A stretch of DNA of 64,000 nucleotides, taken from a virus. The notes beneath the pieces are model-generated. The model was not told the DNA's origin and made no database searches. It saw only the letters and a list, made by a program, of their open reading frames with translations. The translations under genes and the position numbers were made by a program. The DNA is taken from positions 1-64,000 of IMG/VR virus record IMGVR_UViG_3300034101_006340; one strand, 5' to 3'. Positions within the stretch are counted from its first letter, which is position 1. Each line of letters starts with the position of its first letter. Positions 15,973 through 51,062 of the stretch are shown one piece after another.

Positions 15973-15976
15973 TATA

Positions 15977-16447: not shown

Positions 16448-16452
16448 GAATT

Positions 16453-35750: not shown

Positions 35751-36521
35751 CTATCTAAGATCGTTTGGATTATTTTCTGCCACTAGTCGGCCAACCTCTG
35801 GAACAAATTTAATATTATCAGATCCAATATGATTGCTAAGACATAAAAAAGATATTTTTTCAGCATCACCAAAAATTCCTTGGTCAAAAATTTGCGATAC
35901 TCTTAAATAAGAATTTGCATATTTATTCATTATTTTAGAACCACCAAAAGCAAATCTTATTAAATCTCCCATCTCGCCCTTTTCCCAATAATGAGATGTA
36001 TATATTTTACTACAATCTGTAAACTGATGTAAATTCAGTAAATTATTTAGATTATATTGCATATCCGGGCGTAGTCTAAAAACAAAATCATACAGTAAAT
36101 TTGATGAGTACTCAACTTCCTTTTTTAAGATATTACAATAATAAATTAATCCAAATTGTTTAAAACAGTGCAAAACATCATTTTGTATAGCCCTGTCATC
36201 AAAGTTATACTCTTGATCGGTCATGTCTGTATAATTAAAAGGACTATATGTTGAAGAAAAAAAATCGTCTTTAAGTATTCTTACGTGATTTGTTTCGTAG
36301 TCTTTTTTTATTTGATTCGAAGATACTATCATATCAGATGACCCTGTCGCATTAAGATTATGTGCTGCTGACCAAGATTTGTTTGTGTTTAATTTATCCC
36401 ATGTGCATACAAATGTGTCGATGATACCAAATTGACTATAGTGTTGTTTAAACATATAATAATTATCTAATAATTTTTGATAATTTCTCATGTGACCAGA
36501 GATACAAAAAGCAATTCTCAT
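35751..36521 (-). CDS. Putative glycosyltransferase (DUF7796-like)
   Basis: MRIAFCISGHMR, FVCTW, YDFVFRLRPD. Confidence 0.6.
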   Translation of the reverse strand: MRIAFCISGHMRNYQKLLDNYYMFKQHYSQFGIIDTFVCTWDKLNTNKSWSAAHNLNATGSSDMIVSSNQIKKDYETNHVRILKDDFFSSTYSPFNYTDMTDQEYNFDDRAIQNDVLHCFKQFGLIYYCNILKKEVEYSSNLLYDFVFRLRPDMQYNLNNLLNLHQFTDCSKIYTSHYWEKGEMGDLIRFAFGGSKIMNKYANSYLRVSQIFDQGIFGDAEKISFLCLSNHIGSDNIKFVPEVGRLVAENNPNDLR

Positions 36522-36964
36522 AATAAATAATCTCTATAAGACTGAATATAATCGCTACATATACCAGCACAACTATAATATAATTTATTTTTAGACCATG
36601 GCTGTTGATCTAGGCATATCGAATACTCTTGTAGCTCATGCATAGGATATGTCCATATATAATTATTACTAGTTAATGTGTAATAATCATTTTGATGCCA
36701 AAAGCAAGCCATGTCTAATTTAAGCAATAGAGTTAATGCTGTAATATTTTTTGCATGACACCATAATCTATTTTTATTATCGATTAAAAAACTTTCATTT
36801 ATCCGATAATCACAAGAGTCATGTCCCAAGTACCATTGATTATTCTCAACTGTTAAATCTATTTCAACATCAAAATCTTTGTTTATAGCTTCTAAAATAT
36901 AAGAGGGAGAATTTTCGTATTTATTAACACCATCAGTATTGCCTCTATGCGAAATAAAAAACAT
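36518..36964 (-). CDS. GDPD/PLC-like phosphodiesterase, short
   Basis: ISHRGN, ENSP, DVEIDL, LGHD. Confidence 0.75.
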   Translation of the reverse strand: MFFISHRGNTDGVNKYENSPSYILEAINKDFDVEIDLTVENNQWYLGHDSCDYRINESFLIDNKNRLWCHAKNITALTLLLKLDMACFWHQNDYYTLTSNNYIWTYPMHELQEYSICLDQQPWSKNKLYYSCAGICSDYIQSYRDYLL

Positions 36965-36971
36965 ATTATTT

Positions 36972-37292
36972 TTATATGATATATTTATCTGATGGTACAG
37001 ACGGCCATTTAATCACAATAAGATCGACATCCTCTAAAACAGTAACATCAGCTATGTCATAAGGTTCATACAAGAACATGTCGCCCCTAGACAATATGCG
37101 ACCAGATACTAATAGTTTACCAGAAATAATATACGTCAATTCTTGAGATATTTTATGCGTATGTGGTTGAGCCTCATGACCGGCTTTATGAGAATGGTGA
37201 GCAACTTCAAAAGAACTATTTCTAAAAACGGAAGGATAGAAATCTCCTATAAACCATCCATTTTTCATTTCACTAATGTTATATGTTTTCAT
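36972..37292 (-). CDS. Cupin
   Basis: GWFIGDF, HTHKISQELTYIISG. Confidence 0.75.
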   Translation of the reverse strand: MKTYNISEMKNGWFIGDFYPSVFRNSSFEVAHHSHKAGHEAQPHTHKISQELTYIISGKLLVSGRILSRGDMFLYEPYDIADVTVLEDVDLIVIKWPSVPSDKYII

Positions 37293-38458
37293 ATATCTGA
37301 TAACTCTTGAACTCGCACTTGATGTCTTCCTCCATCAAAAGTATTATTTATTAAAATTTTAATAACGCTTTCTGCTTTACTAGTATCAGCAAAAATTTTA
37401 CTTGGGAAAGAAAAATAATTTGCACAACTATGCCTGATAGACATTTCAGCAGAATATTCGTCATAAATTAATGCTCCTCGAATACCATTAAATTTATTAC
37501 CACATATATTTACGCCCTGTCCGGTTCTACAAAAAGCGAAAATAAAATCACAAACTCCGTCTTGCTTAGAAACAATAGCTTGATTTATATAATATTTATA
37601 ATCACAATCGTTGTGAGTGTGTGTGCCAAAGTCTATATATTCTATACCCAATTTAGATAATATATCCGCAAATATTTGTTTTGTTTCATACCCAGAATGA
37701 TCAGCACATAATGCTATTGGTTTTACGCCTATGTGTTTAACAACATTATTTTTATAAAACATAAATTCTTTTGGCGTCCCAAAAATATGTATTTTATCTA
37801 CTAGTCTATCTATTATATTTTTATTATCTTTTATCAATAGATTATATAAAGGAGTGATATAAAACTCTCCATTAGTAGTAATATTATTTTTAATCATTGT
37901 ATCGGCATATTCACAAAACATAGATCCTTTAGCAAAATAATAAATACCTACACACGCCCTGTCACTAATAACTTTTTTTTCTGCCGTTAAAGTAATATAC
38001 TTATTATTATCATCTAATTTTACATAACTATAATTTGGAGAATTAGATTTAAAAGTTAATAGCGTACCATCAATACCATCGTCCGCCAAAGAAGATGGAT
38101 CTAAGACCGGGAAAAACTCTATATCTAATGTATGAATAATTAGAGGCATATCATTATTGATTACTTCTTTTGCCAATAAACAACTACACACTGAGCCTTT
38201 TGTTAAGCCATCAGTAATAAAAATTTTAATATCATCTCCAAATTTATTGCGTAAAATTGTGTCAGCATTATAGTTATAAACCTGATCATCTCTAACAATA
38301 AAAATTAAATTACACTCTGAATAGTCAATACAACTTAATGATATATCGATAAGTTGTTTATTTTCTACATAAATAAATTGTTTTGGCACCTCGTATCCCG
38401 CTTCCTTAAAACGACTACCTAATCCCGCCATAGGAACAATAAGATTATATTTTTTCAT
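37289..38458 (-). CDS. Sugar-phosphate nucleotidyltransferase fused to RpiB/LacAB isomerase
   Basis: LIVPMAGLGSRF...PK...EFYITPLYN; C-terminal ADHSG, FCRTGQG, GGRH..R. Confidence 0.85.
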   Translation of the reverse strand: MKKYNLIVPMAGLGSRFKEAGYEVPKQFIYVENKQLIDISLSCIDYSECNLIFIVRDDQVYNYNADTILRNKFGDDIKIFITDGLTKGSVCSCLLAKEVINNDMPLIIHTLDIEFFPVLDPSSLADDGIDGTLLTFKSNSPNYSYVKLDDNNKYITLTAEKKVISDRACVGIYYFAKGSMFCEYADTMIKNNITTNGEFYITPLYNLLIKDNKNIIDRLVDKIHIFGTPKEFMFYKNNVVKHIGVKPIALCADHSGYETKQIFADILSKLGIEYIDFGTHTHNDCDYKYYINQAIVSKQDGVCDFIFAFCRTGQGVNICGNKFNGIRGALIYDEYSAEMSIRHSCANYFSFPSKIFADTSKAESVIKILINNTFDGGRHQVRVQELSDI

Positions 38459-39173
38459 GGTTATTTCTATTTATTAATTTATTTTTTGTTTTTAATATTG
38501 CATTAACTAAATTATCTTTGATATACATATATCCCCATTGATCTATAATAAAACCAGCCAAAATATCTCCTGCTCCATTAACATTCAATCCTTCTATAGG
38601 AATATTTTCTACGCAGCAAACACTATTTCCGTCAACAACAATTTCTACTCCAAAAGGATCATGAAATATAATAGGAGTTTTTGTTCTAATAGAACAGTAC
38701 ATATTCTTTCTTTCTCTGGAATCAAAAATAATTTTAGCTTGATTTATTAATTGTATAAATTTAGTCCTGTCAGCCGAACTAGTACAAAAGTCTAAGCTAA
38801 AATTGGACACAATGTTTTGTACGGATAAATAATCTTCAAAATCATCAATATATGCAAAATGAACCCAGCTGGCTGTATTTAAATATTCGATATCTTTTTT
38901 ACTAATGATCGAAGCTTCTGTGTTTTTAACAAAAGACATTCTTGTACTATTAGCAATATCGCAAATAATATACGCTTTTTTTAACCCTATCCTATGACAA
39001 TGAAGAGTATAATTTAAAAAATTAACCTCATTAAAGTTGTTGTATCCTCCAATAATTTTTTGAAGATTAGTGTAGTAATTAGTTTCATTGAGTTGTATAT
39101 TCTGTGTTTCTATAATTGTGTCGAAATATTTTTTACCACAAACAATTAAGCTATGGTTTTTTCGTTGTATCAT
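38445..39173 (-). CDS. PfkB-family carbohydrate kinase (divergent)
   Basis: NVNGAGDILAGF signature. Confidence 0.7.
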   Translation of the reverse strand: MIQRKNHSLIVCGKKYFDTIIETQNIQLNETNYYTNLQKIIGGYNNFNEVNFLNYTLHCHRIGLKKAYIICDIANSTRMSFVKNTEASIISKKDIEYLNTASWVHFAYIDDFEDYLSVQNIVSNFSLDFCTSSADRTKFIQLINQAKIIFDSRERKNMYCSIRTKTPIIFHDPFGVEIVVDGNSVCCVENIPIEGLNVNGAGDILAGFIIDQWGYMYIKDNLVNAILKTKNKLINRNNHEKI

Positions 39174-39174
39174 C

Positions 39175-39699
39175 TTAAAAAGTTTCTTGTTTATCTAGCT
39201 CTTCTATATCGGATAGACCAACATATTTTACCATTTGACGTTCAATAAGAACATTATAAAGATCACAAATAACATTATTTCCGCCTTTAGAAGATAATGT
39301 ATTTTTTATGCCACACAAACTTTTTATGTCTTCACAAGCATCTTGTGGACAAAAACAATATCCAACGCTTTTCATTATATTAATATCGAATAAGTCGTCT
39401 CCTACATAAACCATATCTTTTTTATGAATACGATACTTTTCTTCCAATATTGGCAACAATGATACCTTATCAATTCCTCTTGAACTAAAAAAGTCTATGT
39501 TTCTATTCTTGGCCATATTTTCATTAACTTTGATATCTCCAGAAATAAAACAAACAACTATATCAGAAGCTTTAAATCTTTTAATAGCTGTAAAATCTTT
39601 ATCACAGTATTTTTTAGCATATGGCATCCCATCGAGTCCATAAATTTTTGTACCATCCGTCATAACTCCATCGACATCTAGGGCTATTAATTTAATCAT
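39175..39699 (-). CDS. KdsC-like HAD phosphatase
   Basis: ALDVDGVMTDG, ISG, YVGDDLFD. Confidence 0.85.
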   Translation of the reverse strand: MIKLIALDVDGVMTDGTKIYGLDGMPYAKKYCDKDFTAIKRFKASDIVVCFISGDIKVNENMAKNRNIDFFSSRGIDKVSLLPILEEKYRIHKKDMVYVGDDLFDINIMKSVGYCFCPQDACEDIKSLCGIKNTLSSKGGNNVICDLYNVLIERQMVKYVGLSDIEELDKQETF

Positions 39700-40463
39700 A
39701 TTTTTAACAGATGCTCCTTTGGTTCATCATCAAATTGTTCGATAGACTCGTGAACCATATGAGGAGGTGGAACGCCCCCGGATTCTGTAAGCCAGTGTTG
39801 ACTCCAAAAATTTTTATTTCTGATTAATCTGGCTTCCAAGTCCACATATCCAGTATGAATAACATAGGGTGTTTTTCCTTGCCTTAACGCTTCAATCGAA
39901 TTGTCAAACATACGAGACTTAACTAAATTACCATTTTTATCAATTAGCTCACAAGTATCGCTTTTGGTTGTATCAACTGTTCCATTCGATTTTCTCGCAA
40001 AGTTTACTGGACCTCTGAAAAGACCGCTTTTATGTAAATACCATTTGTGTCCTATAGAATAATAATGATTAAAATCTTTGTAAAGATTTAATGAAGCAAT
40101 CATATAACACATATATGTATCACACAATAAATTATCTGCTAAATCTAACCATAATGATTTTTGATACAATGGAATATATTCATCCATATCTAATCCAATT
40201 TTAAGTAATTGAGTAGTATTTTGTAGGGCGCAGTTTTTTATTTTTCCATCCATCCAAGGGTCTTCGTAGGAAAAATCACAAGACACCACCTTTAGATTAT
40301 CGAGTTCATGCGAAAGTTTTTGGATTTCTATTAAAGTATCATCTGAGCTAGAATTTATAGCAATAACAACTTCATCGGCAAAATCAGAAAATTTTTGTAA
40401 AGTATTTTTGTAATCAAATTTGTTTTTGATAAGATTAAAAGCAGATGTATAGATAGAAATCAT
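39696..40463 (-). CDS. GT2-like glycosyltransferase
   Basis: FADEVVIA...S.DDT, GLDMDE (DxD). Confidence 0.7.
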   Translation of the reverse strand: MISIYTSAFNLIKNKFDYKNTLQKFSDFADEVVIAINSSSDDTLIEIQKLSHELDNLKVVSCDFSYEDPWMDGKIKNCALQNTTQLLKIGLDMDEYIPLYQKSLWLDLADNLLCDTYMCYMIASLNLYKDFNHYYSIGHKWYLHKSGLFRGPVNFARKSNGTVDTTKSDTCELIDKNGNLVKSRMFDNSIEALRQGKTPYVIHTGYVDLEARLIRNKNFWSQHWLTESGGVPPPHMVHESIEQFDDEPKEHLLKI

Positions 40464-41026
40464 ATTATGTCAATCCCCAAAAGATCAAATACAGCATTTG
40501 CTATTTGACTTGGTTCAATGGTTTGAATAAGGCCATAAGGATCATTGTAATGGAAAGTTGGCTTAGTGCTAGAGAAATCTGGTTCAAATATTCTAATATT
40601 ATTTTCATTAGAAAAGTATGGCCTAGACATGTTTGCGTAATATCCGTATAAAGCGACTATCTTTATATCATAATACGAAGCTAAATGCACGGGCAAACTA
40701 TCAAAACCAAGATGTAATTGAGCGTTTTTGATCAAAAAAGCTAAACTACCATAAGATGTTTTACCCAGATAATCATGATTAGCTCCCTGGCATTTAGGAT
40801 CTAATAACCCTCCAGTTTGAACGATTTCATAAGTAAAATTAGGATTATTTTTGAGAATACTAATAACATTTTCCCATTTGTTATATAATCTTGCTGTTCC
40901 TTTGGGGTCATAAGAATGAAGAGTTATGTATTTCGTAGAGGGCAAGACTATCGAGGAGTCTTCTTTTATAAACGGCTTAGCAATAGGACACCCGCAGGTC
41001 AGTGCATAAGTTTCTAATATGTGCAT
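40460..41026 (-). CDS. GT9 (heptosyltransferase-like) C-terminal half
   Basis: YITLH, HLGFDSLPVHLAS, IVALYG. Confidence 0.75.
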   Translation of the reverse strand: MHILETYALTCGCPIAKPFIKEDSSIVLPSTKYITLHSYDPKGTARLYNKWENVISILKNNPNFTYEIVQTGGLLDPKCQGANHDYLGKTSYGSLAFLIKNAQLHLGFDSLPVHLASYYDIKIVALYGYYANMSRPYFSNENNIRIFEPDFSSTKPTFHYNDPYGLIQTIEPSQIANAVFDLLGIDII

Positions 41027-41028
41027 AA

Positions 41029-41427
41029 TTATATTGTTTCTTTCATTTGAAGTCCTATTCTGGTTTGTCCATTATGAATATAATTTAGATATCTTTGAGT
41101 AAACACAGTAATCATGAAGCTAATGTCAAATAGTCCTTGCCATTTACCGTGTCCTTCCATAATGAGTTGGTTTTCCATAATTGGCATATAATTAATCACT
41201 TTAGCGATATTTGGATTATCTAACAACAATGAATGATATTGTTCCTTACAAGCAAAATATATATCATATTCCGGATATAGCTTTTTCATAGATGGTAATA
41301 AACTAGTAGATAAAAAAATATCTCCAGCACTTTCAGGAACTATCATTAGAATCTTTTTATTATCTGATTGAATTAGTTGTTGTGCTATAATAGCTAATTG
41401 AGAATCATAGTCTTGTTTTGTATCCAT
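41029..41427 (-). CDS. GT9 (heptosyltransferase-like) N-terminal half
   Basis: KILMI...SAGDIFLSTSLL...LYP...NPNIAKV. Confidence 0.7.
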   Translation of the reverse strand: MDTKQDYDSQLAIIAQQLIQSDNKKILMIVPESAGDIFLSTSLLPSMKKLYPEYDIYFACKEQYHSLLLDNPNIAKVINYMPIMENQLIMEGHGKWQGLFDISFMITVFTQRYLNYIHNGQTRIGLQMKETI

Positions 41428-41450
41428 ATAATTCCTTAATATACTGATTT

Positions 41451-41478
41451 ATCATAGATATTTGTCTGTACCGGTCAA
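41451..41478 (-). promoter_or_regulatory. Leftward sigma70 promoter of sugar island
   Basis: Minus strand TTGACC, 16 nt, TATGAT; AAGGAA SD before ATG 41427. Confidence 0.75.
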
Positions 41479-41483
41479 GAATC

Positions 41484-41511
41484 TTGACCATAGACATTGT
41501 TAACTTATAAT
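41484..41511 (+). promoter_or_regulatory. Rightward sigma70 promoter of sugar island
   Basis: TTGACC (41484-41489), 16 nt, TATAAT (41506-41511). Confidence 0.8.
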
Positions 41512-41535
41512 AGTTTGTTTCCACAGAGACTGAAA

Positions 41536-42402
41536 ATGATTATAGCCATAGCTTCGGATCATAATGGGATTGCTCTCAAACAATCCATTAAAACTTTTCT
41601 GATAAATAAATCTTATAAAGTTATTGATCTCGGACCATACTCGAATGAAACTGTTAATTATACAGATTATGCTGATCAACTTGCGCATATTGTTTCCAAC
41701 ACAGAAGTAGATAGAGGAATTTTGATATGTGGTACTGGCGTTGGTATGAGCATTGTAGCAAATAGACACAAAAATGTTAGAGCTGTTTTGGCACACAACA
41801 TGATAACGGCAACCAAGTCGAGAGAGCATAATAATGCCAATGTTTTATGTTTGGGGTCTTGGGTAAATAATGAGCCAGATAATCTGGACATTCTTGATGC
41901 TTGGCTATCGGAATCGTGGGGAGAAGGCAGACACGTTAAAAGAGTAGAAGTAATAGACCAAAAAGACACAGGCATTGTATTAACAAACGGTGTGTTCGAC
42001 ATCATGCATAAAGGTCATCTTGAGCTTTTAAAGTTTGCAAAAAAACAAGGCACCAAATTAGTTGTAGCGATTGATTCCGATGCTAGAGTTAAACTGCTCA
42101 AAGGTCCAAGCCGACCAATTAACAATGAAATAGATAGAAAAAGCTTACTGGAATCTAATATCTATGTTGATGAAGTGATTATTTTTAATACACAGGAAGA
42201 ACTGATTAATTTATATGCCTCAGTTAGGCCGTCTGTTGTGGTTAAAGGCTCGGAATGGACCGCTGATCAAGTACGAGAGCAAGATCATATACCAGATAAT
42301 ATTCAAATTAAATTATATCCATTATTTAAAGATTATTCTACAACCAGCACAATAAAAAACATAAAAGACATTCCAACATGGCAGAAAATAAAAAACTACT
42401 AA
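41536..42402 (+). CDS. RpiB isomerase fused to HldE/RfaE domain II-type nucleotidyltransferase
   Basis: ASDHNG, ICGTGVG, REHNNAN, GRH; then TNGVFDIMHKGH, KGPSRP. Confidence 0.9.
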   Translation: MIIAIASDHNGIALKQSIKTFLINKSYKVIDLGPYSNETVNYTDYADQLAHIVSNTEVDRGILICGTGVGMSIVANRHKNVRAVLAHNMITATKSREHNNANVLCLGSWVNNEPDNLDILDAWLSESWGEGRHVKRVEVIDQKDTGIVLTNGVFDIMHKGHLELLKFAKKQGTKLVVAIDSDARVKLLKGPSRPINNEIDRKSLLESNIYVDEVIIFNTQEELINLYASVRPSVVVKGSEWTADQVREQDHIPDNIQIKLYPLFKDYSTTSTIKNIKDIPTWQKIKNY

Positions 42403-43142
42403 TTATAGGCGACACTATTGTAGACCAATATATTTTTACTCAGGCTTTAGGGCTGAGTCTAGAATCACCATGCATAAAAACCAAATTTATAAATTCTCAA
42501 AGCATGTATGGTGGTGCTGCTAATGTTGCTAGGATAGCCTCCTATCTTGGAGCAGAAGTATCTTTTATTACTTCTGTTAGTAAAATTACCGAGTACCAGC
42601 TTTCTACTCAGTATCAAATTAAAGTTATTAATATAAAAGAACCCAAAGATAATATTAAAAGCAGATACTTTATACAAAAACAAAACACTATTTATCAGTA
42701 TCTACAAATTAATGATTGTATGGAAAATCAACAAGAAGCTAATCTTGTATTAGATCAAGATTATGACACTATTGCTTTTTCTGATTATAGACTCGGATTA
42801 ATAGATCAAAATATTTTAAACATAATCAAAGACAAAAATACCACTACCTATGCAGCATCACAGGTTTCTTCAAACAATCCCAATTTTGAATTATACAATT
42901 GGGTGAATCATATTGTTTGCAACGAAGAAGAATCTCAATACTTGCCTACCTTAGAAAATATTTTCGTTACTAAGGGACACAGAGGGTGTTCGTACAACGG
43001 CAAAGACTACCCTGCATACCCGGTTTCTTCTGTAAAACAGATTATTGGTGCTGGCGACTGCTTTTATGCTGCATTATTAGTATTTAATGATCCAGACAAG
43101 GCTAATGAGATAGCGGCTAAATATGTGGCCAAAGAATTATAA
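42378..43142 (+). CDS. HldE/RfaE domain I-type PfkB kinase
   Basis: IIGDTIVDQY, GGAANVA, FSDY, IGAGDCF. Confidence 0.85.
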   Translation: MAENKKLLIIGDTIVDQYIFTQALGLSLESPCIKTKFINSQSMYGGAANVARIASYLGAEVSFITSVSKITEYQLSTQYQIKVINIKEPKDNIKSRYFIQKQNTIYQYLQINDCMENQQEANLVLDQDYDTIAFSDYRLGLIDQNILNIIKDKNTTTYAASQVSSNNPNFELYNWVNHIVCNEEESQYLPTLENIFVTKGHRGCSYNGKDYPAYPVSSVKQIIGAGDCFYAALLVFNDPDKANEIAAKYVAKEL

Positions 43143-43822
43143 TGAATACATCAGAACTTTGCGTCAGGCTTAATAAGCAATTGTATGATCACAAAATAAC
43201 ATTGCATACCTGGGGTAATGTAAGTGTATACGACAGCAAGACTGGAAATATTTATATAAAGCCTTCCGGTGTTTCATTTGATGATCTAACTGTTGATCAA
43301 ATTTCTATTATAGATCATAATGGAAAACAACATAGTGGTTTAAAACCGTCCGTAGACACCCCCATACACAACGCAATATATAAAGCATTTCCACAAATTA
43401 GATCTATTCTTCATACGCACTCAAAATATACTACAATATGGTGTCAGTGTCGTAAGAATATTCCTATATTAGGTACCACACATGCAGATTATTTTCCTGG
43501 CCCGATCCCTGTTCTTGATCTTCCTAATAATTTTGATTTTGATGCTTACGAAACAAATTTAGGTAATCTAATTGTTAATTATTTTATAGAGCAAAAAGCA
43601 CAACCAGAACGCACTGGGGCTGTTCTTCTGGCCAATCATGGAGTTTTTGTATTTAGCGACAAACCTGAAACTATTATAGAAAAAACTATAACCCTAGAAT
43701 TTATTGCTGAACTAGCAATGTGTTGTGAGATCCTAGGTATTAATCATAAAGATAATACGAGTCTTTTTAATAAACATTTTGAAAGAAAACATGGAGTTAA
43801 TAAATATTATGGACAGTCCTAA
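43142..43822 (+). CDS. araD: L-ribulose-5-phosphate 4-epimerase-like class II aldolase
   Basis: WGNVS, IKPSGV, PSVDTPIH, HTHS, GTTHADYF, NHG. Confidence 0.85.
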   Translation: MNTSELCVRLNKQLYDHKITLHTWGNVSVYDSKTGNIYIKPSGVSFDDLTVDQISIIDHNGKQHSGLKPSVDTPIHNAIYKAFPQIRSILHTHSKYTTIWCQCRKNIPILGTTHADYFPGPIPVLDLPNNFDFDAYETNLGNLIVNYFIEQKAQPERTGAVLLANHGVFVFSDKPETIIEKTITLEFIAELAMCCEILGINHKDNTSLFNKHFERKHGVNKYYGQS

Positions 43823-44219
43823 ATATGGCAAGCAAACTATTGACGAGCCATTTCGTCCTCCAGAGTCGCTCGAAAAATACTGGGGAAATATACAAAATAT
43901 TTTTAATAATGAATCACTAGTATTAAAAATCATAACTATGAATAAAAATACTCAAAGCAGTCTAGAGTACCATGTAACAAAAGATGAATACTATTATCTT
44001 ATTAAAGGCACACTAAAAGTAGGCATGAGGATTGGTAGAGCTAAAAATATTTCTAGAACATTAAATCAAGGAGAAATATTTTATATACCAAGAGGCTTGA
44101 TGCACATGAGGATTGCTTTGGAGGATTGTGTCATTCTAGAGTGGTCTAATGTTGACAACGACGAAGATTCGAATATAGTAGAAGATGGACGCACATACAC
44201 ACACCAGGAGTCTATATGA
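43809..44219 (+). CDS. Cupin
   Basis: SLEYH..KDEYYY, PRGLMH. Confidence 0.75.
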   Translation: MDSPKYGKQTIDEPFRPPESLEKYWGNIQNIFNNESLVLKIITMNKNTQSSLEYHVTKDEYYYLIKGTLKVGMRIGRAKNISRTLNQGEIFYIPRGLMHMRIALEDCVILEWSNVDNDEDSNIVEDGRTYTHQESI

Positions 44220-44896
44220 GACAGCTTTTTTTAGATACCGCTAATCTGGAAACAATCAGGACATATCACGCTAAGGGTATAATAAATGGAGTGACAACTA
44301 ATCCGTCTCTAATATCCAAAGAACCCAAACAGAATTTCGATCAACTGATAGAACAGATATGGATTTATTGTGCATCCAATAGTTTATCGTTTAGCGTAGA
44401 AGTATTTGCTGTTGAACCAAAAGCTATTGTAGAACAAGTATTTTCTTTAACTAGTAAACTACTTAGTGTTTTTCACAACAGAAATCTTCTGTACATCAAA
44501 ATACCTGTCGGACTAGAAGAACTAGACTGTATTAGATACTTATCTGAAATTGGTATTAATGTTAATTGCACATGTGGATACACTACAACACAGATGGAGT
44601 TAGCAGCATTGGCTGGAGCAAAATATGTTTCTGTATTTTATAATAGAGCTAAAGATCTAGGTATTGATTCTTTAGAATCTATAAGGCAGATCAGAGCTTT
44701 TATAGACACAAATAATTTAGATACACAAATTATTGCTGGTAGTATACGTAATCCTTCTGATATTTCCGATACTTGGAATGCTGGTGCAGACATTGTTACG
44801 TGTGGACCAAAAATTATAGACTCAGCTATTTTCCATGAAGGTACCAAAAAGTCTGTTGAAGGATTTATGAAAGATTTTAATGATTGGATACAATGA
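44216..44896 (+). CDS. tal: Transaldolase (TalC/FSA family)
   Basis: FLDTAN, GVTTNPS, SVEV, YIKIP, IIAGSIR. Confidence 0.9.
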   Translation: MRQLFLDTANLETIRTYHAKGIINGVTTNPSLISKEPKQNFDQLIEQIWIYCASNSLSFSVEVFAVEPKAIVEQVFSLTSKLLSVFHNRNLLYIKIPVGLEELDCIRYLSEIGINVNCTCGYTTTQMELAALAGAKYVSVFYNRAKDLGIDSLESIRQIRAFIDTNNLDTQIIAGSIRNPSDISDTWNAGADIVTCGPKIIDSAIFHEGTKKSVEGFMKDFNDWIQ

Positions 44897-45636
44897 TTTA
44901 TTCTCAAATTAGAAAAAATTTAGTACATCGTTTAATAGATATATCTTATAAGAATAAAGAAGGCCATATAGGTAGCTCATTATCTATTTTAGACTTATTA
45001 TATGGGATTTATCATAGCTACAATTTATTTGATCAGTTTGTTTTATCAAAGGGTCATGCCTCATTAGGGCTGTATGTTATACTAGAACATTTTGATTTGC
45101 TTCATGATTCTTTAGATAATTTTTGTAAGTTTGATTCTCGTCTAGGGGGACATCCATACTGTTATTCAGATTCTAGTATTCAGTGCGCTACTGGATCTTT
45201 GGGACACGGATTTCCTTTTGCTTTAGGACTATCAATGGCAAAAAAAATACAGAAAGACATCGGCAGAGTCTATTGTATAATAGGAGACGGAGAAGCTAAT
45301 GAAGGGACCATATGGGAAACAGCTTTATTGGCTTCTCATATGAAAATAAACAATCTATATTGCATAATGGATTATAACCATTCTGGAGACAGAGCACTGG
45401 GTCTTGGTAATATAATTGAAAAATTTGAGGCTTTTGGCTGGGATTCGACAGAGATTGATGGACACAACATGTCTGAAATTTTAAATGCACTAAAGTATCG
45501 ATCCTCCAAACCATTTTTTATTCTTGCTCATACCATCAAAGGATATGGGATACCGAGTATACATAATAATCCTGAATGGCATCATAAGTCTCCTAATGAA
45601 TCTGAATACCAATTTCTAGTATCTCAATTACAATAA
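44893..45636 (+). CDS. Transketolase N-terminal (TPP-binding) subunit
   Basis: GHIGSSLS, SKGHA, TGSLGHG, GDGEANEG, HTIKG. Confidence 0.92.
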   Translation: MIYSQIRKNLVHRLIDISYKNKEGHIGSSLSILDLLYGIYHSYNLFDQFVLSKGHASLGLYVILEHFDLLHDSLDNFCKFDSRLGGHPYCYSDSSIQCATGSLGHGFPFALGLSMAKKIQKDIGRVYCIIGDGEANEGTIWETALLASHMKINNLYCIMDYNHSGDRALGLGNIIEKFEAFGWDSTEIDGHNMSEILNALKYRSSKPFFILAHTIKGYGIPSIHNNPEWHHKSPNESEYQFLVSQLQ

Positions 45637-45654
45637 ATAAGCGAAGAAAAATAA

Positions 45655-46338
45655 ATGAAACACGATAAACCAATATGTGGTAGTAATATTGCTAAAGTTA
45701 ATAGATATATTAGTAATGCTAATATAGTATTCGAAATAGGGGCTTATGATGGCGTCGATATCGAAGAAATTAACCAGCTTTGGAATAACCCCATCATTCA
45801 TTGTTTTGAACCAGATCCAGAACCATTTGAGATATTGAATACATATGCTTCAGAAAAAATAATATGTAATAATATTGGACTTTTCGATAAAGAAGATAAA
45901 ACCATACTATATAAAGTACTTAATAAAAATCTTGGCGAAGCAGAACAAAAAAATAGAAGTCTGTGGTATAAAACTGCTCAATCTTTATATCCAATAAATA
46001 CAAACTATTATGGATATCCAAGAGATATTGGCCTACAGGAAGTAGAAATTAATGTATCTACTATAGATAACTACTGTAAAAAATACAACATTATGCCAAA
46101 TATTATTCTGATGGATACACAAGGTAGTGAATATGATATTTTAATCGGAGCACAAAACACATTAAAAAACAATAATTTAAAAGGTATTATGCTGGAATGG
46201 TCTACAGACACACTGTATACTGGTCAAAAAAAATTAAATGATATCACAACACTACTTGAAACAACCGGTTTTGTATTGGCAGAAAAAATTAATTTATGGA
46301 ATGCAATTCATGGTGATGCTATCTTTATAAGAAAATAA
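45655..46338 (+). CDS. FkbM-family methyltransferase
   Basis: FEIGAYDG, HCFEP, TIDNY, MDTQGSE, YTGQ. Confidence 0.85.
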   Translation: MKHDKPICGSNIAKVNRYISNANIVFEIGAYDGVDIEEINQLWNNPIIHCFEPDPEPFEILNTYASEKIICNNIGLFDKEDKTILYKVLNKNLGEAEQKNRSLWYKTAQSLYPINTNYYGYPRDIGLQEVEINVSTIDNYCKKYNIMPNIILMDTQGSEYDILIGAQNTLKNNNLKGIMLEWSTDTLYTGQKKLNDITTLLETTGFVLAEKINLWNAIHGDAIFIRK

Positions 46339-47217
46339 ATGCGTAAACAATTTGCTAAAACACTCCAGAATATTCTATATAAAGACTCCAATTCCGTATT
46401 GTTATTAGGAGATATAGGCGTATTTGCTTTTAGAAAAGAAATAGAAGAATTATCAGACAGAGTATATAATATAGGAATTTTAGAACAATCCACTGTTAGT
46501 TTAGCCGCTGGGCTATCTAAAAATGGTATAATTCCTTTTGTTCATACAATAGCTCCCTTTATGGTAGAAAGAGCTTTTGAACAAATCAAAATAGATTTTG
46601 GCTATCAGAATTTAAATGGCAATTTCATTAGCGTCGGCTCTTCTTACGATTATGCTGGGCTTGGTTGTACTCATCATTGTCCTGGCGATGTGTCTTTGAT
46701 GCTAACTGTGGAAAATATGCACATATTTTTACCTGGCAATAGTAAAGAATTAGACGATTTAGTTAATCAATCGTATGTTTTAAAGCATCCAAAATATTAT
46801 AGATTAAGTGAATATGAGCACAGCTTATCTCTAGAATTAGAGTATGGTAAAGCCAAGCTTATTAAGCGAGGTCAAAAAGCAACCATAATATGTTATGGTC
46901 CGATGCTTCAACAGGTATATGAAGCAACAGAAGATTTGGATGTGACAGTTCTTTATTACAATACCGTATACCCGTTCGACTGCAAAACTTTGCTGGACAA
47001 CTTGAGTCAAAACATTATTATATGTGAGCCATTCTATATTGGTACAACTAATTATCTTATTACAAACGCTATAAAAAACACATATTATAAAATACATAAT
47101 ATTGGTGTGCCAAGAAAATTTTTGAAAAATTATGGCAATAAACAAGACCATGATCAATTTTTAAGTTTGGACACAACCGGTATAAAAAATCAAATAGAAT
47201 CATGCTTGATATCATAA
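46339..47217 (+). CDS. Transketolase C-terminal subunit
   Basis: NIGILEQ, HTIAPF, GCTHH. Confidence 0.9.
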   Translation: MRKQFAKTLQNILYKDSNSVLLLGDIGVFAFRKEIEELSDRVYNIGILEQSTVSLAAGLSKNGIIPFVHTIAPFMVERAFEQIKIDFGYQNLNGNFISVGSSYDYAGLGCTHHCPGDVSLMLTVENMHIFLPGNSKELDDLVNQSYVLKHPKYYRLSEYEHSLSLELEYGKAKLIKRGQKATIICYGPMLQQVYEATEDLDVTVLYYNTVYPFDCKTLLDNLSQNIIICEPFYIGTTNYLITNAIKNTYYKIHNIGVPRKFLKNYGNKQDHDQFLSLDTTGIKNQIESCLIS

Positions 47218-48227
47218 CTGATGATTGCCAGAATATAGCCGATAAAATTAATAGCACCAAATTAGCTAACAAAAAAATCTTAATAACGGGTGCCACAGGA
47301 TTGATAGGTCTACATTTGGCTAAATCAATAATATCTATTAAACAAAATAATAAACTTGTTTGTCTATTTAATTCAGAGATAGATCCTAAAATAAGACCCC
47401 TATTCGATGACAACAATTTGTCTTGTGTTGCCTATGATCTTACTGATTTGAATTGGAAGTATTTAAATGAATTTGTTGCTGAGTTTGATATTATCATTCA
47501 TGCTGCTGGATATGGTCAACCAAATAGATTTACTGCTAATAAAATAAAAACAATATCACTAAATACAGAAATTACACATAGATTATTTAACCATTTAAAG
47601 CCGGGGGGAACTTTTTTATTTTGCAGTACTAGCGAAATATATAGTGGTTTAGAAAAAAATAATATTTCTGAGGATGATATTGGTGCAACTCAGCCAGATC
47701 ATCCAAGATCATGTTATATAGAAGGCAAAAGATGTGGGGAAGCCATATGCCACGCTATTAAAGATCAATATCCCGATAAGCAATATAATATTAAAATAGC
47801 GAGAATTAGCTTAGCATATGGTCCCGGAACTAGAATCAATGATGCTAGAGTATTAAATAATCTTATTCAAAAGGCTATACAAAACAATAAGATAGAATTA
47901 TTAGATAATGGTAGTGCTATTAGAACTTATGGTTATATTACAGATATTACTGAAATGCTATTGAATATTATGTTGCACGGTCAACACTCAACATATAATA
48001 TAGCTGGTCAATCTCGATTATCTATACTAGAATTAGCCTCAAAAGTAGCATCTCTGACCGATAGTCCTTTAATAGTGCCTGAAAGCACTAATGGTTTGGC
48101 GGGTAATCCTAAAAATGTTAACTTATGTTTAGATAGATATGCTAAAGAATTTCATAAATCAGACTTTATAGACATAGATACTGGATTACAAAAAACAATT
48201 CAATGGCAAAGGTTTTTATATGCATAG
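47202..48227 (+). CDS. NAD-dependent epimerase/dehydratase (UDP-glucuronate decarboxylase-like)
   Basis: ITGATGLIG, STSEIY, RSCYIEGKR, YGPG. Confidence 0.85.
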   Translation: MLDIITDDCQNIADKINSTKLANKKILITGATGLIGLHLAKSIISIKQNNKLVCLFNSEIDPKIRPLFDDNNLSCVAYDLTDLNWKYLNEFVAEFDIIIHAAGYGQPNRFTANKIKTISLNTEITHRLFNHLKPGGTFLFCSTSEIYSGLEKNNISEDDIGATQPDHPRSCYIEGKRCGEAICHAIKDQYPDKQYNIKIARISLAYGPGTRINDARVLNNLIQKAIQNNKIELLDNGSAIRTYGYITDITEMLLNIMLHGQHSTYNIAGQSRLSILELASKVASLTDSPLIVPESTNGLAGNPKNVNLCLDRYAKEFHKSDFIDIDTGLQKTIQWQRFLYA

Positions 48228-49146
48228 AATATTAAGTCAAGATATTGAAAAAATATTATCATTACCAGTACCAAAACATATTGCAAATAAATTAGATTCT
48301 ATAGATGAATCTTTAATATATACAGACTTATCACCAGTAGACTATGAACAATATCTTATACATGTTATAAATGTACTAACAACACCCATAACTCAAAGTG
48401 GACCACATAGACTACAAGACTGGGAAAAGGGCTGGAAAGAAAACTTAGTAGAATTTGCTAAAACTCAAAATACTAATTTATTAATACCTAAATATCATGG
48501 TAAACACCGATATGTAAGATGGCAAGGTAGAATAGTTAATCCTGTAACGAAATATTTTGACTATAAAATTCATACATATATTATAGATACTATAATCGAT
48601 CACTATGTAAAAAATATTAATAATATTTATGAATTTGGCTGTGGCCCAGCGTACCACCTACTAAGATTATCTTCTTACTATAACGATAAACAATTCTTTG
48701 GATTAGATTGGACAAGTACATCGCAAGAAATTATTCAGTTGATTAATGAAATAAATAATACGTCTATTATTGGTAATAGATTTGATTTTTTTAGTCCAGA
48801 CTATAATGTAATTATACATCCAAATAGTTTAGTATATACCATAGCGGCGCTCGAACAAGTTGGTAAAAATTTTGTTAATTTTATTGATTATTTACTAAAA
48901 AACAAACCACAAATTTGTATACATCTTGAGCCCATGTCTGAAACATTAAATAAAGATAGTTTGGTTGATTTATTATCTATTAAATATTTTGAAAAACGTA
49001 ATTATTTATCTGGATTCCTAGAATATCTATCGGCTCTTGAAAAACAAAAAAGAATAGAAATCATAGATGTTCGTAGAACATATGCTGGCAGCTATTTTAT
49101 AGAAGGACACTCGCTGGTTGTTTGGAGACCATTAACTAATGATTAG
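48220..49146 (+). CDS. Class I SAM-dependent methyltransferase
   Basis: YEFGCG, GLDW, FDFF, ALEQ. Confidence 0.75.
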   Translation: MHRILSQDIEKILSLPVPKHIANKLDSIDESLIYTDLSPVDYEQYLIHVINVLTTPITQSGPHRLQDWEKGWKENLVEFAKTQNTNLLIPKYHGKHRYVRWQGRIVNPVTKYFDYKIHTYIIDTIIDHYVKNINNIYEFGCGPAYHLLRLSSYYNDKQFFGLDWTSTSQEIIQLINEINNTSIIGNRFDFFSPDYNVIIHPNSLVYTIAALEQVGKNFVNFIDYLLKNKPQICIHLEPMSETLNKDSLVDLLSIKYFEKRNYLSGFLEYLSALEKQKRIEIIDVRRTYAGSYFIEGHSLVVWRPLTND

Positions 49147-49819
49147 TCTACTAATACCCACAAGAAAAAGATTTCATTTTATCAAAAAATCTCTTTCTAG
49201 TGTTGTGCGTCAAGCAGATGACATCAATCAATACGAGGTGTTGTTTGCTATCGATGATGATGATTTAGAAACGAGAGACTTAATAGAACAATATTGTATA
49301 GGACTAAAAATTAACTATAAAATTATTATCTTTAAAAGACTATACTATAAAAATTTTCATATATATGTCTACGAGCTTTTTCAACATGCTTCTGGTCAAT
49401 TATTATGGGCTGCCTATCCTGATGATATGGAAATACTAACACCTCATTGGGATACAATTTTAAATCAAAAATATATAGATAAGCTTTATTTGAAAACTAG
49501 ATTTAAATGCAATGAATATAAAAATAATTATGCTTGTGAATTTGATAGCTGGAAATACTCTGTTGCTCCCATTTTAAACAGAAGATGGTTGGATGCCACT
49601 AAAAGAATCGGATGTAATTCTCAAACTGATGTTTGGTTGGGCACAATAGCGAGCGAGCTTGATATTGTAACTATTGTTGATGAAATTACTTGCGATATTT
49701 TTAACCACGCAGACGGTTCTCAGCACAACACAAGAGATATAGAATTACCTGATATAAAAAAAGAATGGCTTCTAGACAAAACTAATATACAAGAACTTCT
49801 CAATAAGGATCTAAGATGA
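49139..49819 (+). CDS. GT2-like glycosyltransferase
   Basis: ISLLIPTRKR, FAIDDDD, PDD. Confidence 0.7.
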   Translation: MISLLIPTRKRFHFIKKSLSSVVRQADDINQYEVLFAIDDDDLETRDLIEQYCIGLKINYKIIIFKRLYYKNFHIYVYELFQHASGQLLWAAYPDDMEILTPHWDTILNQKYIDKLYLKTRFKCNEYKNNYACEFDSWKYSVAPILNRRWLDATKRIGCNSQTDVWLGTIASELDIVTIVDEITCDIFNHADGSQHNTRDIELPDIKKEWLLDKTNIQELLNKDLR

Positions 49820-50724
49820 ATACTTTAGTGACTGGAGGAAAAGGATTAGTTGGCTCCTTTATACCCTTCGGATTAAAGCCAACAAAAGATATATTAAATT
49901 TATTAGACTATCAGGCTTTGGAAAGATATATAGAAAACAATAATATTTCAAGTATCATACATACAGCAGCCAAGGTTGGAGGTGTTCATAGTAATACAAA
50001 GTATGTGTTTGATTTTTTTGTAGACAATCTAAATATTAATACAAACATCCTCAAAGTCTGCCAAAAATATTCTATTAATAAGTCTTTATTTATGATCTCT
50101 ACCTGTGCATTTCCTAAAAATGCTCAACTACCACTACAAACAGAGTCATTGCACAATGGAGAGCCACATGAGACTAACTATGGCTATGCTTATGCAAAAA
50201 GAATGATAGAGGTTGGGATTAGATCATTAAAACAGCAATATAATCTAATGGCGAATTCTATTATTCCATGCAATCTTTATGGAGAGTATGATAATTACCA
50301 TTTAGAGAATGGCCATGTTATTCCTGGTTTAATTCATAAATGCTATCTAGCTAAAAAAAACAATACTACACTAGAAATTTGGGGGTCTGGCAATGCTGAG
50401 AGAGAGTTTATTTATGCAAAAGATATAGCTGATATAATTGATAGTATTCATAAGAATAATCTCTATATAGATGGGCCAATGATAGTATCTCCCGATTCTA
50501 TTATTACTATTAAAGAAATAGTTCATAATATAGTTAAAATTATGAAATTCAATGGTGAAGTATATTTTAATACTACAAAACCAGAGGGTATTCTCAAAAA
50601 AAATTCTTCTAACGCAAAGTTTAGAACACATTTTCCGGATTTTCAATTTACTGCTCTAGAAGAAGGTCTTGGTAAAACAATCGAATACTTTTTATCCAAT
50701 TACTCTTCTGTGCGACAACAATGA
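49816..50724 (+). CDS. fcl: GDP-L-fucose synthase-like epimerase/reductase
   Basis: VTGGKGLVG, AAKVGG, STCAFP, YAYAK, PCNLYG, HVIPGLI, WGSG..EREF. Confidence 0.85.
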   Translation: MNTLVTGGKGLVGSFIPFGLKPTKDILNLLDYQALERYIENNNISSIIHTAAKVGGVHSNTKYVFDFFVDNLNINTNILKVCQKYSINKSLFMISTCAFPKNAQLPLQTESLHNGEPHETNYGYAYAKRMIEVGIRSLKQQYNLMANSIIPCNLYGEYDNYHLENGHVIPGLIHKCYLAKKNNTTLEIWGSGNAEREFIYAKDIADIIDSIHKNNLYIDGPMIVSPDSIITIKEIVHNIVKIMKFNGEVYFNTTKPEGILKKNSSNAKFRTHFPDFQFTALEEGLGKTIEYFLSNYSSVRQQ

Positions 50725-51062
50725 TATATTGTTTTGATATCGATGGAACACTGTGTACTCAAACCGATGGTAATTATGATAATGCTATACCTATCCAGCA
50801 CAGAATTGATATAGTTAATAGTCTATACGAAAACGGAAACACCATCTATCTTTTAACCGCAAGAGGAATGACAAGATCAAAAAATAATACTGCTATAGCT
50901 TATGGAGAAATGTATTCCCTTACTAAAGAACAATTATCTAAATGGGGTCTCAAATATCATATGCTGTTTCTAGGAAAGCCTAAAGCAGATTATTACATAG
51001 ATGACAAAGCGATGATCGATACAAAGTTTTTCCATGATGGATCGAGCGAAGCAGGCTCTTGA
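50721..51062 (+). CDS. Small HAD phosphatase (capsule-locus type)
   Basis: FDIDGT, TARG, GKP..DYYIDDK. Confidence 0.85.
   Translation: MIYCFDIDGTLCTQTDGNYDNAIPIQHRIDIVNSLYENGNTIYLLTARGMTRSKNNTAIAYGEMYSLTKEQLSKWGLKYHMLFLGKPKADYYIDDKAMIDTKFFHDGSSEAGS

Follow-up and report, generated by a model that had tools for sequence, protein, structure and literature searches.

In the adenosine diphosphate (ADP)-glycero-manno-heptose pathway, an isomerase, an anomeric PfkB kinase, a HAD-IIIA phosphatase and an adenylyltransferase of the cytidylyltransferase fold act in series before a GT9 glycosyltransferase, and enzymes for nucleoside diphosphate (NDP)-heptoses have already been reported in viruses (PMC11573728). 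In lincosamide biosynthesis, LmbR transfers a C3 unit to ribose-5-phosphate, and the isomerase LmbN, the kinase LmbP, the phosphatase LmbK and the nucleotidyltransferase LmbO lead on to a guanosine diphosphate (GDP)-octose (PMC5854111, PMC12945683). The Afh systems of phages RB69, DLP3 and HY126 use an isomerase, a 1-kinase, a HAD phosphatase and an RmlA/MurU-like nucleotidyltransferase, with bifunctional fusions among them (PMC13326640), and marine T4-like cyano- and pelagimyophages carry hypervariable regions rich in glycosyltransferases, rfaE-like and sugar-nucleotide genes (PMC7029224). Here, we describe an island of 22 predicted sugar-nucleotide and glycosylation genes at positions 35751-51062 of a 64,000-nucleotide stretch of viral DNA (the window; positions 1 to 64,000 of IMG/VR record IMGVR_UViG_3300034101_006340). 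The general theme has precedents both in glycan islands of phages (PMC7029224) and in NDP-heptose enzymes of viruses (PMC11573728). Undescribed are the two fusions of RpiB to a nucleotidyltransferase in opposite domain order, and a cross-domain cassette that includes a transaldolase, an AraD-like enzyme and a cupin. We found no published description of an RpiB-nucleotidyltransferase fusion.

The island is packed almost without gaps and forms two divergent operons, as an earlier note on this DNA had described: nine open reading frames (ORFs) lie on the minus strand (L1-L9, 35751-41427; tightly packed or overlapping) and 13 on the plus strand (R1-R13, 41497-51062). Family assignments with intact catalytic motifs were obtained for all 22 genes, and every family named earlier was recovered through Pfam/NCBIfam, motifs, structure or profile matches. 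This includes the transketolase, transaldolase, AraD, the two short-chain dehydrogenases/reductases (SDRs) and the two methyltransferases of the right arm (Pfam/NCBIfam; R10 through its Atlas structure), as well as GT9 (its halves L8 and L9), the GDPD-like gene (L2, by profile) and the further glycosyltransferase (L1, by its GT-A fold) of the left arm.

Comparison with the known systems places the right arm nearest to the ADP-heptose pathway, whose kinase and nucleotidyltransferase are the closest sequence relatives of the right-arm enzymes. The heptose logic proposed in the earlier note stands for the isomerase, kinase, phosphatase, nucleotidyltransferase and GT9, with the right-arm kinase and nucleotidyltransferase nearest to HldE domains I and II. 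Of HldD, the cluster holds no orthologue above cut-off. The absence of GmhA and HddA was likewise borne out, as none of the 22 products matches a SIS (GmhA) or GHMP (HddA) model in Pfam or NCBIfam. Unlike the ADP-heptose pathway, the island has an RpiB-type domain and a phosphomannose isomerase (PMI)-like cupin instead of a SIS-type GmhA. Its isomerase is fused to the nucleotidyltransferase, while the published forms are mono-domain, kinase/nucleotidyltransferase and isomerase/kinase/nucleotidyltransferase; its cassette adds a dedicated transaldolase and an AraD-type epimerase, and its GT9 is split into two genes.

With the lincosamide pathway, the island shares a dedicated transaldolase on pentose phosphate pathway (PPP) intermediates and the same series of activities thereafter, a match of activities only. 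The enzyme families of the other steps differ, LmbN, LmbP and LmbO being of SIS, GHMP and RmlA type, and the lincosamide route serves antibiotic biosynthesis in Streptomyces rather than a GT9-linked glycan. Afh, the phage route to UDP-arabinofuranose from a sugar phosphate of PPP origin, is closest in logic to the left arm. It differs by a SIS isomerase, an APH-like kinase-nucleotidyltransferase fusion, a 5-hydroxycytosine DNA target and GT-B arabinosyltransferases (PMC13326640), none of which turned up here, and among the window ORFs scanned there is no ThyA-like 5-hydroxy-dCMP synthase, SIS arabinose-5-phosphate isomerase or GT-B DNA arabinosyltransferase. The islands of cyano- and pelagimyophages are known from annotation only, and the present phage belongs to another lineage (DnaB ~26% identity); gp204-gp207 of phage Bellamy are nonetheless 42-60% identical to L6, L4 and L3.

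With moderate confidence, we read the island as encoding the synthesis of a transaldolase-built, ADP-activated higher-carbon sugar, heptose-like or possibly octose-like, which would be moved by a two-subunit GT9; a second NDP-sugar would be the product of the left arm.

The conserved right-arm cassette

R1-R5 together with R13 form a conserved cassette of six genes, ancient and widely distributed, encoding an RpiB/HldC-like fusion, an HldA-like kinase, an AraD-like enzyme, a PMI-like cupin, a transaldolase and a small HAD phosphatase. Syntenic loci occur in Woesearchaeota, Parcubacteria, Saccharibacteria, Acidobacteria, the metagenome-assembled genome (MAG) assembly L006 from NCBI and T4-like phage contigs, at 25-64% identity. 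In these loci, genes for a PfkB kinase, a cupin and a transaldolase come after the fusion gene, usually together with one for the AraD-like enzyme, and an R13-type or other HAD gene lies nearby. The earlier note had listed transaldolase and AraD among the additions of the right arm; they are not additions by the phage, as both belong to the cassette conserved over bacteria and archaea. In the protein collection, 1391 proteins are related to the RpiB/HldC-like fusion. A single R1 orthologue of 64% identity occurs on 347 contigs, among them one of 207 kb that also carries PTOX, gnd and zwf, and another cassette-bearing contig has Gp23, UvsW and UvsY. The cassette occurs on very abundant marine phage contigs; the whole island gives zero megablast matches to 50,697 deposited phage records, none of which contains the RpiB/HldC fusion either.

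The cassette is linked to GT9. Each of the four cellular loci with Pfam annotation (L006, L087, L088, L089) has a GT9 gene no more than 4 kb away, and in the phage lineage the neighbour of the cassette is the split GT9. Gene identities, catalytic motifs, cassette conservation and GT9 linkage are all observations. Four of five carrier genomes encode a stand-alone RpiB besides the fused one, and four of five further transaldolase copies. As the fused RpiB and the cassette transaldolase are extra paralogues, the cassette enzymes are dedicated rather than housekeeping. Fusions vary between loci: the MAG proteins P0005 (L006 7623-9017) and P0006 carry a tandem pair of HldC-like nucleotidyltransferase domains after RpiB, the protein in L006 being preceded by a 627-aa GT9-GT2 fusion protein, and a Parcubacteria MAG combines cassette cupin and small HAD phosphatase in one ORF (L009 10100-11341). 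Cassette cupins of cellular genomes have two domains (240-277 aa), of which phages retain only the C-terminal one.

Two further loci were noted in passing. In T4-like phage contigs (L002 13366-15341), the cassette is followed by a PP-loop protein (NAD synthase/QueC-like), a UDP-glucose/GDP-mannose dehydrogenase, GT10, GT11 and GT25, a tailoring set unlike that of the window. In Woesearchaeota (G006:C75:4280-5740), a single open frame of 542 aa gives both a transaldolase match and a GmhA-like SIS match, possibly a transaldolase/sugar-phosphate-isomerase fusion.

R1 (41497-42402; TIGR01120, TIGR02199) joins an N-terminal RpiB-type isomerase to a C-terminal HldC/HldE-II-like adenylyltransferase, and its true start is probably the ATG at 41536 (288 aa) rather than the TTG at 41497. 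The isomerase part scores 156.7 bits with TIGR01120 (cut-off 138.65), matches the RpiB structure 3ph3 and keeps all of Cys66, Thr68, His99, Asn100, Arg133 and Arg137 (E. coli numbering). The nucleotidyltransferase part matches TIGR02199 with E 2.5e-35, at 121 bits versus a cut-off of 181.5, and HldC (5x9q) with E 3e-19. It carries HxGH and an [FL]xx[GD]xSTT-like motif without the Arg of the STTR5 motif; the [FL]xx[GD]xSTT-like motif is the hallmark of the heptose-1-phosphate adenylyltransferase family (PMC11573728). R2 (42378-43142, 254 aa; PF00294 E 8.5e-13) is a short PfkB kinase with a GAGD motif, nearest to HldE domain I; its best model, TIGR02198, gives E 1.5e-18 and 67 bits versus a cut-off of 345.

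R3 (43142-43822, 226 aa) is a ketose-phosphate 4-epimerase of the AraD type (Aldolase_II; NF006047, and 1jdi with E 6.7e-47), although it scores below both curated AraD cut-offs (217 vs 257 for NF006047; 195.5 vs 389). Relative to E. coli AraD (1jdi), the equivalents of Asn28, Lys42, Asp76, His95/97/171, Asp120 and Tyr229 are kept and Ser75 is replaced by Val, so that the metal ligands Asp76/His95/His97/His171 and the acid/base pair Asp120/Tyr229 are intact. A reading as methionine salvage (MtnB, ARD cupin and HAD) was rejected: the AraD models give 217 and 195.5 bits versus 67 for MtnB, and there are zero ARD matches.

R4 (43779-44219, 136-146 aa; Cupin_1 E 2e-11, PF01050 E 1.3e-5) is a metal-binding cupin similar to type II phosphomannose isomerases. 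Its motifs ExH(x)4E(x)6G and G(x)5PxG(x)2H and a KYWG box are conserved in nine orthologues, and the KYWG box is reminiscent of RPWG, a motif of type II phosphomannose isomerases. R5 (44216-44896, 226 aa; TAL_FSA E 1.9e-37) is a short transaldolase (TAL), in which the equivalents of Asp6, Glu60, the Schiff-base Lys86 and Phe132 of T. acidophilum TAL (3s0c) are kept. Aldolases of the FSA type have Gln and Tyr at the Glu60 and Phe132 positions, and this Glu/Phe signature rules out FSA as the identity of R5. It is no ordinary cyanophage talC product either, with 35% identity to cyanophage TalC. R13 (50721-51062, 113 aa; TIGR01689 E 6e-8) is a small HAD-IIIA phosphatase with a DxDGT motif. It is of the EcbF/BcbF capsule-phosphatase type, as L6 of the left arm is of the KdsC type, and neither is a GmhB; R13 orthologues of 42-56% identity stand beside the cassette in L002, L003 and L009-L012.

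The split GT9 and the left arm

GT9, the heptosyltransferase family, has a GT-B fold, and both of its Rossmann halves are matched in the left arm, in two separate genes. L9 (41029-41427, 132 aa) is the N-terminal half, aligned to GT9 profile positions 22-97 (N-terminus of heptosyltransferase III/II/RfaF, E 1e-4 to 1e-3), and L8 (40460-41026, 188 aa) is the C-terminal half, aligned to positions 261-313 (PF01075 E 8.7e-7; RfaQ E 1.6e-7). At the junction of L9 and L8, a stop codon is followed by TT and ATG, and the halves lie in different frames. The split is preserved in three relatives whose neighbouring R1 gene is 73-92% identical. A model of the L8-L9 complex reaches a score of 0.92 compared with 0.30 for the best of three controls, with at least 80% of contacts agreeing between runs and a partner pLDDT of at least 91. 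Of 80 solved complexes, 58 attain the mark applied, as do 2 of 110 mismatched pairs; these counts hold only roughly for L8-L9, as its model was built with three-row alignments. The modelling supports binding of the two halves to each other, though the pass may only mirror likeness to the single-chain fold, since structures of intact GT9 enzymes have been solved.

The neighbour of the split GT9 is L7 (39696-40463, 255 aa), a GT2-like glycosyltransferase of the GT-A type (0.98 to GT2 clusters by Atlas features; TM 0.85 by structure), which is kept in contigs L004 and L005 and always adjoins the split GT9 in close relatives. L6 (39175-39699, 174 aa) is the HAD-IIIA phosphatase of KdsC/KDN-9-phosphate phosphatase type (TIGR01670 E 5.5e-23; NF058599 E 1.1e-20) and carries a DxDG motif. 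L5 (38445-39173, 242 aa), assigned from motifs and model, is a minimal sugar kinase of the PfkB/ribokinase fold with GG..N and GAGD motifs; its AlphaFold2 (AF2) model (pLDDT 93.7) retrieves KHK, ribokinase, KDG kinase and HldA in Foldseek (E ~1e-11 to 2e-9, TMq ~0.7). L4 (37289-38458, 389 aa; Pfam, NCBIfam) combines an N-terminal RmlA/MurU-like sugar-1-phosphate nucleotidyltransferase (4evw E 1.5e-15) with a C-terminal RpiB-type isomerase (3ph3 E 4e-23), in which Cys/Thr/His and Arg133/Arg137 are kept and Asn100 is replaced by Ser (E. coli numbering). It is 60% identical to Bellamy gp206 and to its counterpart in SynMITS9220M01.

L3 (36972-37292, 106 aa; phrog_24762 E 6e-43) is a small cupin that shows the motif HxH(x)4E(x)6G and is 57% identical to Bellamy gp207. 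L2 (36518-36964, 148 aa; phrog_34507) is a truncated GDPD-like domain with HRG, EN, ExD and HD motifs at its N-terminus. The profile of its family (2210 relatives found) matches the GDPD 7e0v with E 2.9e-4, and in other organisms members of the family occur in fusions with methyltransferases, GT61, WavE and DUF7796. L1 (35751-36521, 256 aa) resembles GT6 and GT8 glycosyltransferases of the GT-A fold: its AF2 model (pLDDT 78) matches BoGT6a, GTA and LgtC in Foldseek (E 1e-6, TM 0.45-0.50), and it has an RPD motif as in DUF7796/WavE-type proteins and a weak match to the DUF7796 part of protein P0236. Pfam yields zero matches for L1, L3, L5 and L7 at E values up to 5, and phmmer against the PDB yields none for L5, R10 and L2.

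The arms had been described in the earlier note as mirroring each other. They do so in their functions, but the RpiB domains share only 25% identity, the cupins are weakly related (BLAST E 2.6e-4 between L3 and R4), no other pair is detectably paralogous and the gene order differs. The two RpiB-nucleotidyltransferase fusions have opposite domain order and unrelated nucleotidyltransferase folds. Relatives of the island show the same modularity. Contig L004 (92%-related) has the whole collinear island, with the FkbM gene cut to a 29-aa remnant by a recent deletion (L004 14101-14251 vs window 45655-46338). In L005 and a third contig, the right-arm core is kept, the left side is limited to L7-L9 and the transaldolase is followed by another module. 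Synechococcus phages Bellamy and SynMITS9220M01 carry the distal left module alone (HAD, kinase position, nucleotidyltransferase/RpiB fusion and cupin) at 42-60% identity, with annotation there only as phosphatases and hypothetical proteins; we found no published characterisation of the sugar genes of either phage. The arms are independent modules of parallel function, not mirror copies.

Proposed product, isomerase and acceptor

We infer the substrates, the order of steps and the acceptor as follows. The transaldolase would make sedoheptulose-7-phosphate from erythrose-4-phosphate or, as LmbR does, octulose-8-phosphate from ribose-5-phosphate, and the AraD-type enzyme would invert C4, at the same C3-C4 bond that the transaldolase has made. 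Conversion of the ketose to an aldose by the RpiB-type domain and/or the PMI-like cupin, phosphorylation at C1 by the HldA-like kinase, removal of the terminal phosphate by the small HAD and formation of the ADP-sugar by the HldC-like domain would follow, with final transfer by the two-subunit GT9 and the GT2 enzymes. The transketolase, both SDRs and both methyltransferases would provide precursors and tailor the sugar. In the distal left module (L6-L1), an RpiB-type isomerase, the minimal PfkB kinase, the KdsC-like HAD and the RmlA-like nucleotidyltransferase would lead to the second NDP-sugar. This is possibly a pentofuranose, a guess based on the lack of a transaldolase, on the RmlA-like nucleotidyltransferase and on the logic of the phage UDP-arabinofuranose route.

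For the right arm, counting the dedicated transaldolase together with the match to the ADP-heptose and GDP-octose pathways favours a higher-carbon ADP-sugar. By analogy with the lincosamide octose route, conservation of transaldolase and AraD points to dedicated building of a carbon chain rather than simple supply from the PPP. An octose-type route with ribose-5-phosphate as acceptor would account for RpiB and TAL occurring together.

Two enzymes are candidates for the ketose-aldose isomerase. The position of Arg113 in M. tuberculosis RpiB is occupied by Trp in 11 of 11 aligned RpiB/HldC-type fusions and by Lys in L4, and most of these 11 fusions have an extra Lys/Arg before the Arg137 equivalent. 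In stand-alone RpiB paralogues, two of four have Arg at this position and the other two Asp or Gln. Arg113 is a phosphate ligand that closes the pentose-sized pocket and is absent in the longer hexose-phosphate pocket of LacAB (PMC3755991). The Trp weakens the case for the fused RpiB domain as an ordinary ribose-5-phosphate isomerase, without pointing to a particular substrate. It is plausible that this domain stands in for GmhA; the PMI-like metal cupin of the same cassette would be an equally good candidate.

Several observations weigh against a higher-carbon ADP-sugar as the product. The R1 RpiB domain lies above the NCBI equivalog cut-off for ribose-5-phosphate isomerase with its catalytic residues kept, and R3 retains all catalytic and most phosphate-binding residues of AraD. 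With both active sites kept, R1 and R3 may act on ordinary pentose phosphates, which would fit a pentose product or pure precursor supply. R2 and the nucleotidyltransferase of R1 fall far below the curated HldE cut-offs. GmhA-like SIS proteins are present in some cassette-bearing genomes (matches in four of five carrier genomes, all below cut-off), so that the cassette may not be a clean replacement of GmhA. The T4-like phage contigs combine the cassette with GT10/GT11/GT2 instead of GT9. Finally, the cassette offers two candidate isomerases besides one epimerase, which allows more than one order of these steps.

It is possible, though clearly less probable than a higher-carbon sugar, that one or both arms instead make an NDP-pentofuranose (ribo-, arabino- or an L-pentose via the AraD-type step). 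A pentulose-5-phosphate would then pass through isomerase, 1-kinase, 5-phosphatase and nucleotidyltransferase as in Afh, with transaldolase and transketolase merely feeding pentose phosphates. RpiB and AraD-like active sites are of the pentose-5-phosphate enzyme type, the Afh phages apply the same four-step logic to a pentose by means of a nucleotidyltransferase of MurU/RmlA type and a HAD similar to GmhB (PMC13326640), and the left arm combines an RmlA-like nucleotidyltransferase with the lack of a transaldolase. However, the right-arm kinase, nucleotidyltransferase and GT9 are all nearest to heptose enzymes, the dedicated transaldolase is kept in the cassette even where the genome has other TALs, and the fused RpiB family has lost Arg113, the clamp for pentose phosphates (PMC3755991).

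A bolder form of the higher-carbon reading, which we regard as doubtful, takes the cassette as an undescribed route to an ADP-higher-sugar other than glycero-manno-heptose. After formation of the C3-C4 bond on erythrose-4-phosphate or ribose-5-phosphate and inversion at C4, the clamp-less, LacAB-like RpiB domain would give a galacto-configured heptose or octose phosphate, and the two-subunit GT9 would glycosylate the neighbouring Ser/Asn-rich fibre-like protein, a transfer similar to that in heptosylated bacterial autotransporters.

Concerning the acceptor, a simple hydropathy scan finds zero hydrophobic segments resembling membrane spans in the 22 products, which are all predicted to be soluble, and the island contains no flippase, polymerase or initiating transferase. 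For these reasons the acceptor is probably reached in the cytoplasm. It could be the lipid A-core of the host or a structural protein of the phage; a candidate for the latter is the neighbouring Ser/Asn-rich protein of 862 aa, which co-occurs with GT9 genes in close relatives, all of one lineage. This protein (33161-35749) ends 1 base before the island, contains 15% Ser, 14% Asn and many repeats of the FYN-S/T-S..NNG type, and has zero Pfam or PHROG matches. Beside it lies a Cys-rich protein of 610 aa (31321-33153).

Glycosylation of phage DNA through a modified base, in place of protein or envelope, is improbable in our view. GT9, GT2 and GT6-like enzymes are, to our knowledge, not among the types that glycosylate DNA, and cellular cassettes adjoin GT9 in glycan contexts with GT2, GT4 and methyltransferases. 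The setting of the island is suggestive of DNA as a target, in that genes for deoxycytidine monophosphate (dCMP) deaminase and ribonucleotide reductase (RNR) flank it and the window includes a T4 gp1-like deoxynucleoside monophosphate (dNMP) kinase and a nucleoside deoxyribosyltransferase-like gene; moreover, the sugar-nucleotide cassettes of RB69 and DLP3 serve DNA arabinosylation (PMC13326640). Yet no thymidylate-synthase-like hydroxylase or hydroxymethylase appears among the window ORFs scanned, a part of those in the window, with the rest of the genome not covered.

Least probable of all is an auxiliary metabolic role, in which RpiB, transaldolase, transketolase and the AraD-like enzyme would boost the PPP for nucleotide synthesis and simply lie beside unrelated glycan genes: cyanophage talC, zwf and gnd are classic genes of this kind, gnd and zwf lie ~5 kb from the cassette in L002 and L003, and metagenomic surveys reportedly mention rpi among viral metabolic genes, but RpiB is physically joined to a nucleotidyltransferase in both arms, RpiB, TAL, kinase, HAD and nucleotidyltransferase stay together as extra paralogues in non-photosynthetic bacteria and archaea, one orthologue fuses cupin and HAD, and the identity of R5 to its cyanophage counterpart is as low as 35%.

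Remaining genes, phage setting and significance

Between R5 and R13, the right arm encodes a split transketolase and a tailoring set. R6 (44884-45636, 250 aa; PF00456 E 5e-30) is the N-terminal, thiamine diphosphate (ThDP)-binding subunit and R8 (46339-47217, 292 aa; PF02779 E 2.3e-16, PF02780 E 1.6e-6) the pyrimidine-binding and C-terminal subunit of the transketolase, with an FkbM-family methyltransferase, R7 (45655-46338, 227 aa; PF05050 E 2.8e-12, TIGR01444), between them. R9 (47202-48227, 341 aa; PF01370 E 1.7e-35) is an extended SDR of the NDP-sugar dehydratase/epimerase type with a YxxxK motif, whose best NCBIfam match is dTDP-glucose 4,6-dehydratase (E 2.3e-20). R10 (48220-49146, 308 aa) has zero Pfam matches and is assigned to the class I methyltransferases dependent on S-adenosylmethionine from its Atlas structure (TM 0.71-0.79, Methyltransf_11/25 clusters). 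R11 (49139-49819, 226 aa; PF00535 E 7e-7) is a GT2 glycosyltransferase, and R12 (49816-50724, 302 aa; NF047922 E 2e-59, at 201 bits under the cut-off of 500) an SDR epimerase/reductase similar to Fcl, of the GDP-fucose-synthase type. Of the tailoring genes that had been compared with those of Campylobacter before, Fcl-like SDR, cupin and methyltransferases are all present.

The sole real gap of the island (41428-41535) separates the two operons. It holds a divergent pair of promoter-like sites at 41451-41511 on both strands, with a shared inverted repeat and two TTGACC boxes, matching at 11 of 12 positions on the plus strand (41484-41511) and 10 of 12 on the minus strand (41478-41451). These calls are consensus matches only, and as such matches occur at chance level across the region, the pair is merely suggestive. 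A perfect 12/12 sigma-70 consensus (TTGACA, 17 nt, TATAAT) at 51059-51087 marks the right border of the island. It lies where the small HAD gene ends and within the start annotated for the dCMP deaminase ORF, whose true start probably lies further downstream, opening a new transcription unit.

The island lies in a phage genome and not in a characterised bacterial locus. The window contains genes for RIIA-like and UvsX/RecA-like proteins, a DnaB-type helicase, primase, PhoH, class II RNR, dCMP deaminase, the T4 gp1-like dNMP kinase, an HNH protein and a PD-(D/E)XK nuclease, and GC content is even over the island (~0.29-0.33). A protein identical to L1 is found on contigs of up to 233,716 bases. 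The carrier is a large, uncultured tailed phage. It is not a T4-like cyanophage, because its helicase has ~26% identity to that of any deposited phage and its PhoH 40% at best; an identity as a T4-like cyanomyovirus is ruled out. Among the virus records compared, the nearest (G001) is a fragment of 20 kb that lacks the island, and a single-protein scan of viral contigs with R1 gave no match.

Elsewhere in the window, a 334-aa protein (11701-12705) matches the actin-like Pfam family Volactin (E 6e-64), next to genes for a RuvB-like ATPase (9764-10696) and a subtilase (13033-13953). A run at 15424-18659 encodes nucleoside 2-deoxyribosyltransferase-like, SET-domain and IMPDH/GMP-reductase-like proteins and a GT4 glycosyltransferase, possibly an additional module for sugars or nucleotides beyond the island. 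A PAP2 phosphatase is encoded at 19793-20476, and the phage has its own sigma-70 region 4-like protein (21066-21644) and ClpP-like protease (22910-23578).

If the cassette indeed leads to a new ADP-heptose or ADP-octose, it would represent a GmhA-independent branch of sugar-nucleotide biochemistry, common to bacteria of the Candidate Phyla Radiation (CPR), DPANN archaea, Acidobacteria and marine phage contigs that rank among the most abundant. As small proteins predicted to be soluble, the six core enzymes make the pathway open to direct tests in vitro. NDP-heptoses are innate immune agonists (PMC11573728), and new analogues would be of interest in this respect. For these phages, the 'transaldolase' and 'rpi' genes listed as auxiliary in viral metagenomes would then serve glycan synthesis and not nucleotide supply.

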